From Naegleria gruberi (taxonomy: Eukaryota), in assembly GCA_000004985.1 (NCBI GenBank), contig GG738907.1: a stretch of DNA of 64,000 nt; one strand, written 5' to 3'. Of the stretch, positions 10,096-64,000 are shown one piece after another. Position 1 is the stretch's first letter. Every line of letters begins with the position of its first letter. The notes beneath the pieces were generated by a model. That model was not told the DNA's origin. It was given only the letters and a program-made list of their open reading frames with translations, and did not search any database. A program made the translations under genes and the position numbers.

Positions 10096-10199
10096 TTCAC
10101 ATTATCGTGAATTCATTTTTTATGATCCTGATTTTCTTAATTTTGATTCATCAGCAATTATATGACTTGGAGAACAATGTGGAATTTTTAATTAGATAT

Positions 10200-14116: not shown

Positions 14117-14633
14117 CCACACCCGATTTCACATGTTCTAAATAGGAAGTGTGATCCTAATCTAGTATTTTCCAACAGGTGGTAGCTTTTTGAAAATGTT
14201 AGTAATTAACCAATATCGAGTGAAATTGAAGGAACTTTTTGAAGTTATTTTGAATAAGTGATCTAGTGGTAGTCTTGTGATGTGTTTAATTTCTTAAAAT
14301 TTTTATTTTTGAGATTAATGCCTTGCTTAATGTATTAGAAACAAGTTCGTCCCAAATATTTAAATTTTACATGGGGAGTAGAATTTAATTCGTTCACGAA
14401 TCAATTTACTTGAGTAAAAACATGTAAATAGGAAAATTACATTAATATTGTAAATATTATTTGGATACTCATTTGGCTAAAATTGTTGTTGGATGAATTC
14501 AATCAACCACCAACAATAGTTTCAAATTAGACTTTCCTTTTTAAAAAATATCCGTAAATGGAGCGAGGAAAATAGCGCTCCAAAGTTTCCTTTTTTATCC
14601 TCATTCAATAACTCAATCACACCATTAAAAAAA

Positions 14634-25049: not shown

Positions 25050-27182
25050 TTATTGCAAAACTTCCATGGTAGCTTCGACATCTCCATGTTCATTGGAGAA
25101 CAACATTTGTCTTTCGGCCAAATTCTTATAGATACCATGTTCAATGGCCATCAATTCAGCATGGGTACCAGTTTCTTTCAAAATACCCTTAGCCAAGACG
25201 CAAATCTTGTCAGAATTTCTAACAGTGGACAATCTGTGAGCAATACAAATAGTTGTTCTTCCCTTCATCAACAAGTCCAAAGCAGCTTGAACGAGAGCTT
25301 CAGATTCAGTATCCAATGCAGATGTGGCTTCATCCAACAAGAGAAGCTTTGGATCTTGCAACAAGGCACGAGCAATACAGACACGTTGCTTTTGACCACC
25401 TGAGAGTGAGACACCACGTTCACCCAATAAAGTATTGTATCCATCTGGCAAGTCCATAATGAAACTGTGACAGTTGGCAGATTTGGCAGCTTCAATAACC
25501 TTTTCCATTGTAGTATTTTCTTCACCAATAGCATATGCAATATTCTTGTAAATGCTGGTAGCAAACAATACAGGTTCTTGAGTGACAATACCAATATTCT
25601 TGTGGAGCCACATTGGATCGATTTCGGCAATATCAACACCATCAAGATAAACCTTACCCTTAGCTGGATCGTAGAATCTTTCCAATAAACCAACAATTGT
25701 TGATTTACCTGAACCAGATGGACCAACCAAAGCAACAGCTTGACCGGCCTTAATATCCAAACTGAATTCCTTCAAGACAGTAACATTTGGACGTGATGGA
25801 TAAATAAAGTCAACATTTTCAAATCTGACATTACCAATGATACTATCAAGAGTTTTACCTCCCTTGAAAATAATAGCTGGCTTTCTCTTCAACAACTTCA
25901 AGACAGTCTTTTGAGAAACCATGGCCTTACCATAATCAGGGAAGAATGAACCAGCTTGTGAAATACCAATAATAGCAAACAAGGTTAAACCGAAAACCTT
26001 GAGCATAGATCCGATATTCATGGTTCCTTCAACAACAAGACCTCCACCATACCAGAAAGCTAAAATAAAATTATTGAGCTAATTTGAAATAATTAAAAAA
26101 CATACCCAAAGCAGTAGTACCCCACAAGATACCAACCAAAATACCAAAAGTAGAACCTTGAGCAACAGCTTTACCAATACCAGCCAAATACATCTTGGTC
26201 AAGTCCTTCTTGTATCTGACTCTTTCCTTTTCTTCTCCGGCCATTGATCTTACAGTTCTCATAGCTCCCATCACTTCAGTAGCAATGGAGGCACTATGAT
26301 CGTTGGCCTTATTAATTGCCAAAGTTAACTTTCTGATAATACCCCCGAGGAACACTACACCTAGAATCATCAATGGTGTAGTACTCATCATGACAAGGGC
26401 CATTTGCCATCCTGATGTCAAGGCAAGAATGACACCAATCAAAAATTGTGCCAAGTTTTGAAGTAAAGTAGCCATTTTGACAGAATAAATTTCTTGAATA
26501 CGAGTGATATCTTCTGAAAGTGTAATGGTCAATGCACCAACCTTCTTAATATCAAAGAAGCCCATCTCTTGAACTGTCAATGAATCAAAGTAAGCACTTC
26601 TAATAGCAACACCAATTCTTTCACTGGCCCAGTTCAAGAAGAATTGAGACATGAAATTGGCAATGCAAGCAGCAGCTGCAATAATGGCAAAGTATGAAGC
26701 ATAGACTCCAATTTCGGCCTTTTGTTGCTCTGGAGTAACAGTTGATCCATCTGCACGTGTTGGTGAAAAGACATTGATTAAATCTCCCATAACAAATTGG
26801 AAACTATTAGATTCAACAATATTAACAATCGGAATGTTAGTATAATTACATACCTAATTGGAATCACACCAGTACCCATAGCTCCGATGCTTCCCAAGAA
26901 TACTAATATCCAATTCCATCCTATAATTTTATAAATTGTAAAACCGTCTTTAAATGTAAGATTTGGTTCTCTTTCATCAGGAATTTCCTCGGAATCTTTC
27001 TTTTCTTCTTCTTGTTTCTTCTTTCTCTTGAAAGGATTTCTTGATTTTCTTTCCGTTTGTGGTTGTTTCTTATCTTCCTTAATTTCTTGTTGTTGTGCTT
27101 TAACTTCCACCACATCAACAACTAATTCATTGTTTGCCGACATGTTGTGTTCTATATACAAAGATGATTGTGTATTATCCAC
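25050..27182 (-). CDS. ABCB-type half-transporter (TMD-NBD, ~678 aa). Three exons: 27182..26854, 26803..26106, 26059..25050. Introns are 26804..26853 (50 nt) and 26060..26105 (46 nt).
   Basis: The NBD carries Walker A GPSGSGKST, ABC signature LSGGQKQRVCIARAL, Walker B LLLLDEATSALD, and an H-loop. The TMD end FWYGGGLVVEGTM is reconstituted only after removing the 46-nt GTATGT...TTTTAG intron. Intron 2 is GTATGTAATTATACTAACATTCC...TAATAG, with a canonical TACTAAC branch. All exon junctions stay in frame. Confidence 0.8.
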
Positions 27183-27608
27183 TATTATTATTCAAATTTC
27201 AAATTGATAGGAAGACCTAAAAGTTGAGTGGATAACAATTCGCTTGTTTTTTTCTGTTGTGTTTTTAATTTTAGTGGAGAGAATCTCAAGCACGTACAAT
27301 TTTCTTCCATCTAGAAGAGATTCAATTGCGACTGCAAGTCATTTGATGTTGTGACTATCATTGAAATGGTGGCGCACTTGTGGGTGTTGGTATTCAATAG
27401 TGCGGTAGGCACGCTTATAGCGAAATTGTTCAACGCTTATAGCGCCAATGTGTCTAACGGTAAGAAAAAACCCGCTCTTTAGTTGAGACTTTAGAGAGGG
27501 AGCATGAGATTTTTGAGTGAGGATAAATCCTATACTATTAATACAATACAATTACACAGTGTTAAGATTATCAATATTCTTTAGATTCATTGTTTTAGGG
27601 TTATGAAT

Positions 27609-27727
27609 GGCTACGGCCATATCACGATGAATGCACCTCATCCCGTCCGATTTGAGAAGTTAAGCATCGTCGAGCCACATCAGTACTGAGGTTGGAGACA
27701 ACTTGGGAACCTGTGGTGCTGTAGTCT
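27609..27727 (+). rRNA. 5S rRNA: 5S ribosomal RNA gene (119 nt), dispersed rather than in an rDNA array, followed by a T6 Pol III terminator
   Basis: GGCTACGGCCATATCACGATGAATGCACCTCATCCCGTCCGATTTGAGAAGTTAAGCATCGTCGAGCCACATCAGTACTGAGGTTGGAGACAACTTGGGAACCTGTGGTGCTGTAGTCT matches 5S consensus blocks (GGCCATA..C; GAAGTTAAGC; AGTACT..GGGAGAC; GGTGCTGTAG). Helix I pairs across the 5' and 3' ends. TTTTTT follows at 27727-27732. Confidence 0.85.
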
Positions 27728-28082
27728 TTTTTGCTTTTACCACACATTTTCTATTTAGAGACATTTTCATTACAAGATTCAAAGGTTGAGGTGGAAATCA
27801 AGGACGTTCTTTCCAGTCACTGGAAGACAGTGTCTATTATCCTCAATCTAAATCTCACAAGCTCATCAAATCTACAGAGATCTAAAGAGAAAAAGTCCTA
27901 AATATTCAACACTGGATTTTTAAGAAGCAATTAGTGGTAGTTGTCACCATTGCTAATTATCTTTTTAAATAGAAGAAATGAGAGAGGGATTTTTTCGTAT
28001 CGTAAACTTAACATATGAGGTAAAATATTTCAGTTGAAAAATAAGGTAATGGCAGTAAGGGAAAAGAAAAAGAAGTAAAATC

Positions 28083-28193
28083 TGCAGAAGGTGGGATTTG
28101 AACCCACGAAGCTTGCGCAGTAGAACTTGAGTCTACCCCCTTTGACCACTTTCAATGTGGCAAACACTAACATACCTACTGCGCAACCCCTGC
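28083..28193 (-). tRNA. tRNA-Leu(CAA)-like: Aberrant tRNA-Leu(CAA)-like gene (111 nt). The anticodon, variable and T arms and both acceptor strands are intact, but the D-arm region carries a ~30-nt insertion. Possibly a pseudogene or an unconventional intron.
   Basis: Reverse complement reads GCAGGGG TT GCGC AGT[AGGTATGTTAGTGTTTGCCACATTGAAAGT]GGTCAAAGGGG GTAGA CTCAAGT TCTAC TGCGCAAGCTTC GTGGG TTCAAAT CCCAC CTTCTGC A. AGTGGTCAAAGG matches the class-II Leu D-loop AGTGGTCTAAGG. The insertion is flanked by an AGT direct repeat and equals one arm of the 28-bp inverted repeat below. The D-stem GCGC/GGGG pairs poorly. Confidence 0.5.
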
Positions 28194-28230
28194 TTCACAT
28201 TAAGGTATGTTAGTGTTTGCCACATTGAAA
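28150..28230. repeat. Perfect 28-bp inverted repeat (arms 28150..28177 and 28203..28230) with a 25-bp spacer that contains the tRNA-Leu-like 5' acceptor strand
   Basis: Arm tttcaatgtggcaaacactaacatacct and its exact reverse complement aggtatgttagtgtttgccacattgaaa. One arm lies inside the tRNA D-loop region. The other lies in the 5' leader immediately upstream of tRNA position +1. Confidence 0.8.
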
Positions 28231-28567
28231 AATGCGACATTCCCCTTTTTGTTGGTTGAGTAGTATCTTATAGTAGATCAACAATGTTTCTAGAGCAGTG
28301 TTAGAGTGCAAATGTACTATCGTACTGACAAAAACTATTAGTGGTTCATTTGGATCATAAACTTTAACCTCATAAGAGTAGTATCGTACCTTCTCTAGAA
28401 GACTGATAAAAATGATTGATGGAGTGAACATGCGGATTTGTACCTTAATTTTTATGAATAAATGAAAAAACGAAAGTAATTCAAACTTTACCCCGTATAT
28501 TTAAACATTGAGGGAGGGTCATATGACCTTAATTAAATGAAGTCAAACCAAAAGTTTTGTCACAATA

Positions 28568-28639
28568 TAAAACAGAAGGGGACCAGTGGGAATCGAACCC
28601 ACGGCCTCTCGCACCCAAAGCTATAATCATACCACTAGA
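28568..28639 (-). tRNA. tRNA-Pro(UGG): tRNA-Pro (anticodon UGG), 72 nt. Two A·G mismatches in the anticodon stem suggest a possible pseudogene.
   Basis: Reverse complement reads GGGACCATGGTCTAGTGGTATGATTATAGCTTTGGGTGCGAGAGGCCGTGGGTTCGATTCCCACTGGTCCCC. Apart from the anticodon stem it is near-identical to canonical eukaryotic tRNA-Pro(UGG). The 5' stem strand is ATAGC rather than CTCGC, giving two A·G mismatches against the 3' strand GCGAG. Confidence 0.6.
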
Positions 28640-29020
28640 CCATGGTCCCTTACATGAAATATGAAGAATTTATTTCTCAATGTAGTATTATATCCTTATT
28701 TTTGATACCTTATCTCTTTAGATATTTATTGCAAGTCTTGTTGTCAACCCAAATATTCAACTTGTTTGTCATTGAGGATGAGACGATTGCAGCATTTCTG
28801 CTCTCATTCCTTAATTGATTAATTAGTGTGAAAAATCGAATGGACAAAGAAGCTATATTTTGAACATGACTAATCAAAAGTAAGTGTCGGTTTGACTAGC
28901 ACCGTACTTTCGTATTCACTACAGAACTTAATCATCAAAACTCGTGAACCTCAAGAAATTAAACCTGATATTATTGCGCATCAATCTATTGCATATTTAA
29001 TACTATTTTATTTTACAATT

Positions 29021-30148
29021 TTAATCGTCGAAGACTATTGATACATCAACTAGCTTTGAATTTCTGGCACTTTCGATTAATTTCTCCTTTGTTCTTGAAT
29101 GTTTGGTCATTGTCTTGTGCGAATTGTGGAAAAAACAGCATTGCCATCCACTGTTCAAAACATCATTAAATTTCAATGGGCCAACTCCAGCAAGTGAGCT
29201 CAATTCATCTAAATTAAACTTCTGTACGAATGGAAATTTTGGAAATGGTTTTTCAGGAAAATCAGCAAACATTTCACCAATACAAAATACATCATTCTTA
29301 CTATTGAGAAAATACTCTCCTCTTGAAAATCCTCCTATTTCAATAACTTCTCCTAAATCTAGAGGGCATTCAGTTAAATTATTATGATCTGAACTATCCT
29401 CCTTCAATCCAAATGTTGCTTGATGCATATTGTCATAACCACAACAAAATATCTTGTTCTCTTTGGTTCTAAGTATAACATGATAGTAACCTCCTTTAAC
29501 TTTGTCTATTGTGTGTTTTTTTTCTAGGAAAGTTGATAAATGGTTCAAATTGGAGTCATAATCTGAATAACCTAATCCTGATCTAATGTGATTGCCCAGA
29601 TCTTGAGCGTAAATCTTATTCTCTCTATCAACAATTAAAAATCCACCATTCCAACAACCTCCACATCTAATAACAGTATCATTTGGTATCTCAATTTTCA
29701 CAGGAGTTTCTTTTTTGCTCAATTCCCACAATTCGTTCCTGTCGTTGATAATTAAAAATTGATTTGCCAGAGGTCCACTCATTACTTCCTTAATCCTAAT
29801 GTTTAATTGATACATATGGCCCTCTGGATTCTCGGCAGAATCAATTCTCAAAACTCTTGTTCCATTTACATCAACTATATAAATTGAATCAACATTTCTA
29901 TAATATTCATTTGGTATAAAATCTGGATGGTGCTTTTTGAAATTAATTTTCAAAAGTTTCAAGGACACGGTTTTTTCAGCAATCAATTGATTATTGCCAG
30001 TCAATCGTGATAATTCCAATTTACAACAATCACCTTCGCCATGCCCAAAATAAACAATATCATTATTCTGATCTACAAAATAAATATACCTCTCTCCTCC
30101 GAACATTGTTTTAAATTGAAAATTAGTAAATTGGCAATAAAACAACAT
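29021..30148 (-). CDS. Hypothetical beta-propeller-like protein with RCC1-like repeats (375 aa; the start is probably the internal MFGGERYIYF)
   Basis: Repeats of the form GGYYHVILRTKENKIFCCGYDNMHQATFGL and RCGGCWNGGFLIVDRENKIYAQDLGN resemble RCC1 blades. Domain assignment is weak. Confidence 0.4.
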   Translation of the reverse strand: MLFYCQFTNFQFKTMFGGERYIYFVDQNNDIVYFGHGEGDCCKLELSRLTGNNQLIAEKTVSLKLLKINFKKHHPDFIPNEYYRNVDSIYIVDVNGTRVLRIDSAENPEGHMYQLNIRIKEVMSGPLANQFLIINDRNELWELSKKETPVKIEIPNDTVIRCGGCWNGGFLIVDRENKIYAQDLGNHIRSGLGYSDYDSNLNHLSTFLEKKHTIDKVKGGYYHVILRTKENKIFCCGYDNMHQATFGLKEDSSDHNNLTECPLDLGEVIEIGGFSRGEYFLNSKNDVFCIGEMFADFPEKPFPKFPFVQKFNLDELSSLAGVGPLKFNDVLNSGWQCCFFHNSHKTMTKHSRTKEKLIESARNSKLVDVSIVFDD

Positions 30149-49318: not shown

Positions 49319-49608
49319 TTTTTTTCATTGTAAACAAATTAATTCAAGAAGTGATTTGGACACATGGTAATCTCTCTTGCAAGGTTATCTTTAACAGCTA
49401 GAACCATATTACTAGCCAATCTTTCAGTACGAATCTAAATTCAATATTTGTAAATTACATTCAATAATAATACTAAATACACACGGAGTGATGATGTCCT
49501 TCAAGTCAAACCAACCAAACAATATTGTTAAATATTATCTTGTGTGGGGCATGCACAAAATTGGGAGGAATTTTATTTTTAACTAACATTTTTTGATATA
49601 TAACGTAA

Positions 49609-56670: not shown

Positions 56671-56771
56671 TACATTGTATGATAATAAGAAAAAGAATAA
56701 GTAATCATAAGTCTGTCTGAATACTGTTAAACTCATTTTTTAAAAATTAATAAAAAAATAAATTCAAAAAA

Positions 56772-62200: not shown

Positions 62201-63043
62201 TTGTTCAACATTCTTTTCCAATTGTGAAATGGTAGCAGTGTAAGTTTCAACATTGATAGATTGCAATTTCTTTTCTTGCTCTTCGACTTTCTTGTTCAAA
62301 TCTTGAACTACCTTTGAATGGGAATCTTCAACTTGTTTCTTTTCCTTGTTGAGTTTTTGAACAATTTGTTCGGATTCTTCTAATTTCTTCTTCAAATCTT
62401 GAGAAGTTTGATCCAAAGAAGATTTTGCCTTCTTGAGTTGCTCATTCAATTCTTCAATCTTCTTTTCGGAAATTTGAGCTTCCTTCTTCTTGTCATTCAA
62501 AATCTTGTTCTTTTCCTCATCAAGTTTAGTTTGGAATTTCTTTTCCAAATCGGATTCACTCTTCTTTAATGATTCAGTCTCCTTGGAGAGTGTCTTGTTA
62601 AGTTGTTGTTCCTTTACCAATTGTTCATTCAATTCTTGATTTTGCTTTTCCAACAATTTAACAGAATCTTGTTGAGTTTTCAAAGTTTCGACTTGTTTCT
62701 CAACCTTTTCACTTTCTTCTTGAATTTTCTTCTTTTCAGAGTTGACTTTCTCAACTTCCTTTGTTAAAGTTTGGTTTTGTTCAGTCAATTTCGAAACTTT
62801 CTCTTCTAATTTTCCAACTTTATCTTCATCTGGATTTTCTTTCTTTTTATTCTTGGAGAGGAGGAATAAATTTCCAAGACCAACAAGTATTAAAGTAGCC
62901 AACAAAGCAAGAATAGTTGTATCAGCCATATTGACAATTGATGATGAAAATTTCTTCGGTTGTTGATGATGACAGGTTTTCTCACTGAAGTGTGAAATTT
63001 TTTTTTGAGCGGTCAAAGTTTGCCTGTTGATTGGAGATAACAA
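59216..63043 (-). CDS. Giant coiled-coil protein (1275 aa) with an N-terminal signal-anchor TM helix and a C-terminal RNI-type LRR cap
   Basis: The N-terminus has a basic stretch then a TM helix TTILALLATLILVGLGNLFLL. About 1000 aa of uninterrupted heptad-rich E/K/Q/L sequence follows. The C-terminus is LKNKGCDDDVARVVLQNVKPNSHISKLDLSNNPLITDESAPLVVELVKNNVALKTLDLTGTGFTASGLSTIVSAAQSNTHLTELLV. Its stop codon lies 1 nt from the convergent enoyl-CoA hydratase stop. Confidence 0.65.
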   Translation of the reverse strand: MLSPINRQTLTAQKKISHFSEKTCHHQQPKKFSSSIVNMADTTILALLATLILVGLGNLFLLSKNKKKENPDEDKVGKLEEKVSKLTEQNQTLTKEVEKVNSEKKKIQEESEKVEKQVETLKTQQDSVKLLEKQNQELNEQLVKEQQLNKTLSKETESLKKSESDLEKKFQTKLDEEKNKILNDKKKEAQISEKKIEELNEQLKKAKSSLDQTSQDLKKKLEESEQIVQKLNKEKKQVEDSHSKVVQDLNKKVEEQEKKLQSINVETYTATISQLEKNVEQLKLTLSESKQSEEKLNSQIKKLEQDAKQSGSSLEQDIQKLNEDLNKTKQSESDLQKQLSESKVSHAKLEQDAESLRKQLDELNQSLQSKEKNASESISESEKQIATLKTQIEELTQNINTLNGKLTQAETLSSTLKTELEQANTQSTQHAASLSEKEKQVSDLEKSIAELEKVKIQYNESLETIKSLEKTIHSSSQSSESTQKEKESLEKEITLLKEQIATLNANSQTLTQEKESQVSKAKSLEEQVSNLSTDNSKLLESIKQKEEEINQTKQSLENEKNKLADDLNKIKSENEATLSTLQTLQKTIEESKENASSAVKTIENEKEELSKKLETANSEKAELQKQADKLKEDLAESSNKSQQAATQNSELSQKVQDLQSQLENAQKEKETDLTKLQSQISTLESQLKNHSEVSSSLETLQSEKNSLADKATKLEQDIAEKEKQLKELAQQVETSQTDLNNVKTQLDAEKKTSTETVEALNAATKKSQELESHIQELKKSLEEETQSKTSQVQALTQQLTEQSEKFAKLEESLKTTSSSSNEQVETLKSQLQQVEKQLEESQSTLKTTNAKIDEYKKQVEEITTQLESSKKQESALETQSKTLEQELQSIKKQLEEKASELEKNGTELKNTVESVKSLTEELSNEKKTAETLKQQIDVLNKEKESSASDLSNTVTELKESLKKKEDEINQSENNLKTLNEKIAELTQQVEKASEETKSNQHSLDNQVDENNKLKQSLDELNTTLNGKESELNEMQQRVEHLAKQVEISSQQLSETQIEFEKEKSAMLTQISSLETQTKLQETIFQQQNESEEKMIEQTSNEDLSPAAVSETSSTKSYVNLVEFDDILDAAENGETPDMDFDGIILELRYLDREQLQDFGYLLEYATTLKSVSLKNKGCDDDVARVVLQNVKPNSHISKLDLSNNPLITDESAPLVVELVKNNVALKTLDLTGTGFTASGLSTIVSAAQSNTHLTELLVDTQNLTNDEKSKLPQNK

Positions 63044-64000
63044 ATAGTCGTCAATTTATTGTGTGATGGTAATGAAAAAGGATATTATGAATGTAGAATA
63101 GATTACTTTTTATTGTATCCTAATGTCCTTCTTTATTTTCAAAAAGCCAGTGGAATGATGGCTTGGAATTTTCCCTCCAAAATTTAAAAATATTTTAAAA
63201 AAATTGGCAACCATAAGCAAGAAAATAATCAGAAGAAAATGGCCAGAGTGATGGTGGGTTTGTTAAGTTAGCTTGTTATGTTTTTCAACCCAGAGAATAT
63301 GTTGTGATGGTTATTGGATCATTGCAGTGGTATTGCTCACTCGGGTGAAGTTCTCCATGATTAAAGTTCTTGTTTCACAAGTTATCCCTATCTGTAAGAA
63401 AATGTGAAGATAAACAATATGGTAAAAATTGGATGAGCAAATTTTAATATTTGAATTGTTTTTATTCTATTATGAGATTATTATTGTAATATTCACAATA
63501 CAGACAGGTTCATGATTACAAGGATCTAAGTTTGTTCTTAATTCATGATGTTAAACATGTTGTGACGACAATAGCTGTTTTTGATACATTTGACTAATAA
63601 CGTACCTTTTGTGGTCGCCTATTCCACTTGAGGGGTTCACAATCAAGGCAACAAATCACTCATCAGCGATTACAATTGTATGAACTATTGAAAATGCTTT
63701 GTGTGGGTATTACCAATAAGAATCAATGTTCAATTAAACTCTGTTGATGATGAGCAACGGTCGCGAATAATTATTATTAAATTCTCAAACAAAAAACCAT
63801 CTCTCAATATTCCCACTCTTGTGTGTGACATTTATTTGTTCATCATCAACAGCATCAACAACACTTTAATAATATTTTAACAAACTTGATCGGTATCAAA
63901 ATATTGTCAACAACTCAACAACAACCCTTGTAGAGTTCATTATCATCATCTTATCCATACAAAGTCTGTGAGAGCATAGGCCTAGATTCTATTCTTCTAA

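Follow-up and report, generated by a model that had tools for sequence, protein, structure and literature searches.

A tRNA-Leu(CAA)-like gene in nuclear DNA of Naegleria gruberi carries 30 additional nucleotides within its D loop, and the locus raises the question of whether the gene still works, the insert being removed as an unusual intron, or whether a tRNA gene copy has been disrupted and by which process. The gene was located at positions 28083-28193 (-) of the window, i.e. the whole 64-kb stretch of DNA that was analysed, whose GC content is about 34%. It runs from +1 at 28193 to the discriminator A73 at 28083 and measures 111 nt with the insert and 81 nt without it. The Rfam model RF00005 matched this segment end to end (model positions 1-71) with a score of 26.7 bits, slightly below the gathering threshold (29), and it was the only tRNA match below that threshold in the window. 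ARAGORN with default settings returned no call at the unmodified locus, and a run allowing for anticodon-loop introns gave only a low-score parse as tRNA-Gly, which was rejected as spurious. When the 30 nt were removed in silico, the default search called an 81-nt tRNA-Leu(CAA). Every deletion register of the insert yielded a detectable tRNA-Leu, four of them being equivalent (AGT stands on both sides), and the repaired 81-mer begins GCAGGGGT[GT]CCCGAGTGGTCAAAGGGGG... A tRNA originating from this locus would be recognisable by GCAGGGGTTGCGCAGTGG.

Inspection of the sequence and the ARAGORN call after the 30-nt deletion both confirmed the anticodon, variable and T arms and the acceptor stem described in the original prediction. 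The acceptor strands (GCAGGGG / CTTCTGC) form five Watson-Crick and two G-U pairs. The anticodon arm GTAGA-CTCAAGT-TCTAC, at 28120-28136 (-), has a 5-bp stem and the anticodon CAA at 28127-28129; it is followed by a 12-nt variable arm and by the T arm GTGGG-TTCAAAT-CCCAC at 28091-28107 (-), also with a 5-bp stem and containing box B GGTTCAAATCC. A box A-like segment, TTGCGCAGTAGG, was also recognised, consensus matching of the promoter boxes being carried out by eye. Terminator-like T runs lie within 28067-28080 (-), with TTTT at 28077-28080, 3 nt past A73, and TTTTT at 28067-28071, and similar runs were found 3' of the other tRNA genes and of the 5S gene in the window.

The region upstream of the gene was then compared among six flanks. 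A motif of the ATGT(G)AA type abuts +1, at about -9 to -1, in all five other tRNA genes of the window (10096-10104, 14127-14136, 28650-28658, 49600-49608 and 56671-56679) and in the Leu-like gene, where the leader TAATGTGAA occupies 28194-28202 (-) and matches the tRNA-Ser(GCT) leader exactly. Read up to the +1 nucleotide, examples are TAATGTGAA before G, ACATGTGAAA before T, TCATGTAA before G, AACGTAA before A and CAATGTA before G, and the 5S gene shows a weaker version, TTATGAAT before G, at 27600-27608. The motif may represent a start-site or leader element of Naegleria Pol III genes and, as such, may assist their annotation. The sequence AATGT, followed within 1-3 nt by GCA, was also observed three times in the 5' flank of the Leu-like gene (28194-28241, minus strand, -48 to -1), as GAATGTCGCA, CAATGTGGCA and TAATGTGAAGCA, the second falling within the upstream arm of the inverted repeat described below and the third being the true leader plus +1. 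About 0.14 occurrences of AATGT are expected by chance in this stretch, and the repeats may be degenerate copies of the leader or of the start region.

Since the leader motif is in place and box B and the terminator are present, the 5' end and the flanks of the gene are native, and the locus is neither a retrocopy nor a chance resemblance. An interpretation in which the first 16 nt are not a genuine tRNA 5' end was also considered and dropped, in view of the native leader motif, the presence of T8, A14 and R15 and the complementarity of the acceptor strands. Its neighbours form a small Pol III cluster with it: on one side a 5S rRNA gene at 27609-27727 (+) (Rfam RF00001, 105.4 bits), on the other an intact tRNA-Pro(TGG) gene at 28578-28649 (-), which was detected by both ARAGORN and Rfam (50.6 bits) and lies 385 bp upstream on the same strand. 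The cluster is a mixed one, with a dispersed 5S gene less than 360 bp from the Leu-like gene and about 850 bp from tRNA-Pro.

The insert, AGGTATGTTAGTGTTTGCCACATTGAAAGT, occupies 28148-28177 (-), with a cut register that is ambiguous by 3 nt. It is bordered by an AGT direct repeat (28178-28180 and 28148-28150), and the earlier description of 30 extra D-loop nucleotides with this flanking repeat could be read directly from the sequence. An exact 28-bp inverted repeat, hereafter IR1, had also been claimed and was verified: arm B, inside the gene at 28150-28177, accounts for 28 of the 30 inserted nucleotides and is complementary at 28/28 positions to arm A, which lies in the 5' flank at 28203-28230. 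The position given for the second arm, immediately upstream of +1, proved incorrect, as arm A spans -37 to -10 and 9 nt (TAATGTGAA) stand between it and the gene. The 25-nt spacer of IR1 consists of the gene's own leader motif and tRNA positions 1-16, in the correct place and order. Throughout the 64-kb window, IR1 is the sole perfect inverted repeat of at least 16 nt with a short spacer. Matches to the arm with up to 3 mismatches were absent from 100 dinucleotide-preserving shuffles (0/100), and further copies of the arm were found neither in the window at the same tolerance nor among 43 fetched loci and a set of viral contigs. In the reading developed below, arm A is taken as the source and arm B as the derived copy.

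Such perfect, terminal-looking inverted repeats, together with a 3-nt AGT direct repeat beside one arm, recall a small foldback or MITE-like mobile element inserted in the tRNA gene, as initially proposed, and mobile elements frequently integrate at tRNA genes in several protists. The two arms, however, bound no inserted unit: the gene's own leader and positions 1-16 lie between them, arm B alone is extra, and dispersed copies were missing from the window, the fetched loci and the viral contigs. An origin from a mobile element is very improbable on these grounds, so that of the original proposal, a pseudogene produced by an element, only the pseudogene stands in outline.

The relationship of arm A to the leader motif also bears on whether the two arms can meet in RNA. 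Eukaryotic pre-tRNA leaders are typically short. As arm A lies above the leader motif, which directly precedes +1 in all tRNA genes of the window, it probably falls outside the Pol III transcript of the Leu-like gene, and a duplex between leader and insert would then not form. The processing helix that had been suggested for this pair of arms would require a start at least 37 nt upstream of the gene and is not favoured for the same reason. If a transcript did run from -37, the 28-bp duplex would dominate its fold, with a minimum free energy of -69.7 kcal/mol and a z-score of -7.8.

This hypothetical 28-bp perfect duplex invites the reading of the locus as a newborn hairpin gene for a small RNA of the miRNA or siRNA type, driven by the Pol III promoter of the tRNA. 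Several Rfam miRNA-precursor models did match below threshold, and it has been proposed that miRNA hairpins can originate de novo through template switching (PMC10710096). All of these matches, however, scored far below their gathering values (45.6 versus 90 bits for mir-633 and 40.5 versus 80 bits for mir-2011), they occurred on both strands, which indicates a generic hairpin shape, and arm A is probably not transcribed by Pol III. We consider a small-RNA gene extremely unlikely. Scarcely more probable is the broader proposal of an active Pol III unit in which both arms are transcribed and the hairpin is diced, as a proto-miRNA or siRNA in an RNAi-bearing deep-branching eukaryote, or in which the insert is removed independently of a bulge-helix-bulge (BHB) motif. 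If the hairpin were diced in this way, template switching within a tRNA gene would have given rise to a small-RNA gene.

We next considered whether the insert might be an ectopic intron cut out of a functional tRNA by the tRNA splicing endonuclease, possibly with the help of a helix between leader and insert. Excision of the 30 nt gives back a D loop that fits the consensus, there is no damage to the acceptor, anticodon, variable and T arms, to box B or to the terminator, and nuclear precedents exist in Cyanidioschyzon merolae (PMC3728597). A BHB scan covered 512 cut-site combinations in both orientations and required 3-nt bulges and a 4-bp central helix; no BHB was detected at any of the four registers whose excision gives back the D loop, where at most 2 of 4 central-helix pairs form. 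Moreover, the D stem remains broken after excision and the 'spliced' product is predicted to misfold, arm A, located upstream of the conserved leader motif, is probably not transcribed, and none of the five other tRNA genes in the window (0/5) is interrupted. The literature was also searched for ectopic tRNA introns of Naegleria, and nothing relevant came up. The non-canonical D-loop intron put forward in the original prediction is accordingly not borne out by these results, and we assign it only a minimal probability.

The BHB-dependent ectopic introns of Cyanidioschyzon merolae and Archaea, as described in PMC3728597 and PMC4090602, resemble the present case in that the interruption lies outside position 37/38 and its removal restores the loop consensus. 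In contrast to them, the insert of the Leu-like gene lacks a bulge-helix-bulge at its junctions, would leave a product that is not a foldable tRNA, has no counterpart elsewhere in the window and duplicates the flank of the gene itself. A likeness of the insert borders to spliceosomal splice sites had also been pointed out. It is true that GTATGT starts N. gruberi introns, as in the genuine 46-nt intron of the neighbouring ABC-transporter gene. In the insert, however, GTATGT simply corresponds to an ACATAC of the flank, read as its reverse complement, and the borders GTATGT...AAAG delimit a 27-nt segment that has no pyrimidine tract and lies within a Pol III gene.

The D stem of the gene was then examined with the insert removed. 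The original prediction had the remaining D loop matching the class-II Leu consensus; the loop is indeed canonical, but the stem is not, a defect that had gone unmentioned. Positions 10 and 25 (G10.G25) and 12 and 23 (G12.G23) are mismatched, C11-G24 is the sole pair and position 13 is C. A set of homologues was assembled by scanning metagenome contigs for the anticodon arm plus the T arm of the gene, which returned 39 loci comprising 17 distinct tRNA-Leu(CAA) sequences; the anticodon arm is identical in all 39 loci, which were picked by that very pattern. All 17 distinct homologues follow the pattern T-(G/T)-CCC-GAG-Y...GGG, with three of three D-stem pairs formed and G13 invariant, and one of them shows a compensatory T10-A25 pair. 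Compared with the CCCG of the 17 homologues, the 5' D-stem strand of the Leu-like gene reads GCGC, i.e. three changes within four nucleotides, while the GGG of the 3' strand and the loop GGTCAAAG are retained and the variable arm TGCGCAAGCTTC is very close to the TGCGTAAGCTTC of some homologues. The tRNA-Leu(CAA) genes nearest to it in D loop and variable arm were those of the metagenome contigs L017, L032 and L043, and strong hairpins, e.g. AACCCTTCCCTT...AAGGGAAGGGTT, were observed upstream of them.

The aberrant GCGC falls within one arm of a second inverted repeat, IR2. Arm 1 of this repeat, TTGCGCAGTAG, at 28176-28186, comprises tRNA positions 8-16 and the first AG of the insert, and arm 2, CTACTGCGCAA, at 28113-28123, covers the last nucleotides of the anticodon stem on its 3' side together with the first ones of the variable arm and is taken as the source copy. 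The arms are complementary at 11/11 positions and lie 52 nt apart, and IR2 overlaps the 30-nt insert by 2 nt. When the 201-nt region was dinucleotide-shuffled 2000 times, 0.8% of the shuffles contained an inverted repeat of at least 11 bp, and IR2 could have arisen by chance with a probability of about 1%, its position being left aside. A possible extension of IR2 by GAAGC/GCTTC over a 5-nt bulge was discarded as probably due to chance, the GAA being part of the conserved leader motif.

RNAfold calculations returned structures in which the IR2 helix is formed in place of the cloverleaf, displacing the anticodon and D arms, with minimum free energies of -44.4 kcal/mol with the insert and -36.2 kcal/mol without it. 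The cloverleaf of the Leu-like gene was evaluated at -16.2 kcal/mol, and restoring CCCG in silico brought this value to -23.2 kcal/mol. No D stem could form in the RNA, for which a rod shape built on the 11-bp helix is predicted. On the basis of these predictions, the locus is best described as an ordinary tRNA pseudogene that would not work even without the insert, its loss of function being predicted from structure. Nevertheless, as box B, the terminator and the leader motif are kept and box A is nearly intact, the locus may still bind TFIIIC and be transcribed. N. gruberi has been reported to contain 924 tDNAs (PMC2888827); given the redundancy expected from such a number, the loss of one Leu copy should be neutral.

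Taken together, these features make it probable that the Leu-like gene is a copy disrupted by a short-range, microhomology-mediated inverted duplication due to template switching during replication. According to this model, the nascent strand would have left its template while the D-loop and box A region was being copied, would have used the opposite strand of the adjoining 5' flank (-37 to -10) as template for 27-28 nt and would have returned at a microhomology of 1-3 nt (A/AGT), leaving a 30-nt insert that is the perfect reverse complement of the flank. About 10 nt would likewise have been copied from the opposite strand of the junction between anticodon stem and variable arm, converting CCCG to GCGC, whether as a further step of one event or in a separate, earlier event. 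On balance, the D-stem strand would have had about 5 nt replaced and the gene would have gained 30 nt. The copied blocks share the dinucleotide AG, an A/AGT repeat borders the larger of them and the remainder of the gene is canonical. Microhomology is thus present at the junctions, as AGT/A at the return point and AG between the blocks, these overlaps being too short to weigh much alone. The direction of the change, with CCCG as the ancestral state, is inferred from distant homologues.

The D-stem cluster deserves a separate evaluation. If template switching is accepted for the insert, the chances that the cluster was generated by the same process, on the one side, or by chance or ectopic conversion, on the other, are in our estimate about evenly balanced. 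A class-I tRNA gene could, in particular, have donated the GCGC cluster through ectopic conversion, and the tRNA-Met of the window, which has TGGCGCAG, is an example of a candidate donor.

The inverted duplication might instead be an artefact of assembly, cloning or amplification, produced by a chimeric or fold-back read or by the assembler itself. The perfection of the repeat and its restriction to this locus are features that an artefact would also show, and no independent assembly of the locus was found. The only other N. gruberi-like contig obtained, L004 from an environmental metagenome assembly (ENA ERZ929261, k127_594083), covers positions 25798-27636 of the window at 99.1% identity, with 14 mismatches and 1 gap over 1842 bp, and ends at 27636, inside the 5S gene. 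This contig shows that public data contain a second N. gruberi-like strain (raw reads ERR1078381), and the same sample also contains a relative, L001, at 74% amino-acid identity. When the orthologous locus was sought through the ABC-transporter neighbour, the contigs L001-L003 (74% and 58% amino-acid identity) carried neither tRNA nor 5S genes there. An exact look-up of the ORFs around the locus (375, 512, 882, 73 and 47 aa) found none on record, a protein search with the concatenated stop-to-stop ORFs of 27728-29030 gave no match to other assemblies of the locus, and the RCC1-like neighbour (ORF 29021-30148, minus strand) matched only the N. gruberi protein itself, at 100% identity.

Against an artefact stand the clean junctions with microhomology inside a colinear gene, whose 3' part and flanks are intact, and the adjacent cluster of substitutions, which bears an inverted-repeat signature of its own and would be hard for an assembler to make. 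Fold-back artefacts are normally long palindromes at read ends, and a 28-nt block between unique sequences is unlike their usual product. An artefactual origin is unlikely, although we rate it above the mobile-element, intron and small-RNA readings.

The template-switch reading relates the locus to events already described elsewhere. According to PMC5453318, PMC10710096 and bioRxiv 10.1101/2021.04.15.439925, one template-switch event can give rise to a perfect hairpin as well as to a cluster of substitutions. With the short-range template-switch mutations treated there, under the four-point model of Loytynoja and Goldman (PMC5453318) or as hairpin-creating events (PMC10710096 and the bioRxiv report), and with serial microhomology-mediated switching (MMBIR/FoSTeS), the Leu-like gene shares an exact reverse complement that is drawn from less than 100 bp away and replaces or extends the local sequence, a perfect hairpin made in one step, 1-3 nt of junction microhomology and adjacent substitutions, which would correspond to a second reverse-complement copy. 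The Leu-like event differs from those mutations in that it destroyed a Pol III tRNA gene and neither made nor kept a functional stem, and in that the switch is here deduced from its product alone.

The locus also resembles the tRNA pseudogenes of tDNA-rich eukaryotes (PMC2888827) in belonging to a large family, in its sub-threshold score, in a defect confined to one arm and in the persistence of promoter elements. In contrast to the usual tRNA pseudogenes, its lesion is neither decay by point mutations nor a SINE-like retrocopy but a discrete and recent rearrangement, the inverted repeat having zero mismatches, within a native context that includes the leader motif. For biology at large the loss of one redundant tRNA copy carries little weight. 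The locus nonetheless has modest value as a clean worked example of a short-range and possibly serial switch that would have produced a 28-bp hairpin and a substitution cluster in a Pol III gene in one step, and it illustrates that template-switch lesions can pass for a non-canonical tRNA intron in annotation.

Finally, two minor observations were made on other parts of the window. The intron of the mitochondrial-type ABC-transporter gene (GTATGT...TTTTAG, 46 nt, 26061-26106, minus strand) splits the ORFs 25050-26021 and 26071-26790, whereas the corresponding intron of L001 lies a few codons further downstream; from this comparison of sequences, the intron position appears to have been shifted or replaced between the two. 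Weak matches to C/D-box snoRNA models were also detected at 62938-62989 (+), to sR5 (24.7 bits versus a gathering score of 40), and at 63376-63433 (+), to ceN61 (27.3 versus 60 bits), the latter containing a AATGTGAA motif at 63401, and the two segments may be unannotated snoRNA genes.
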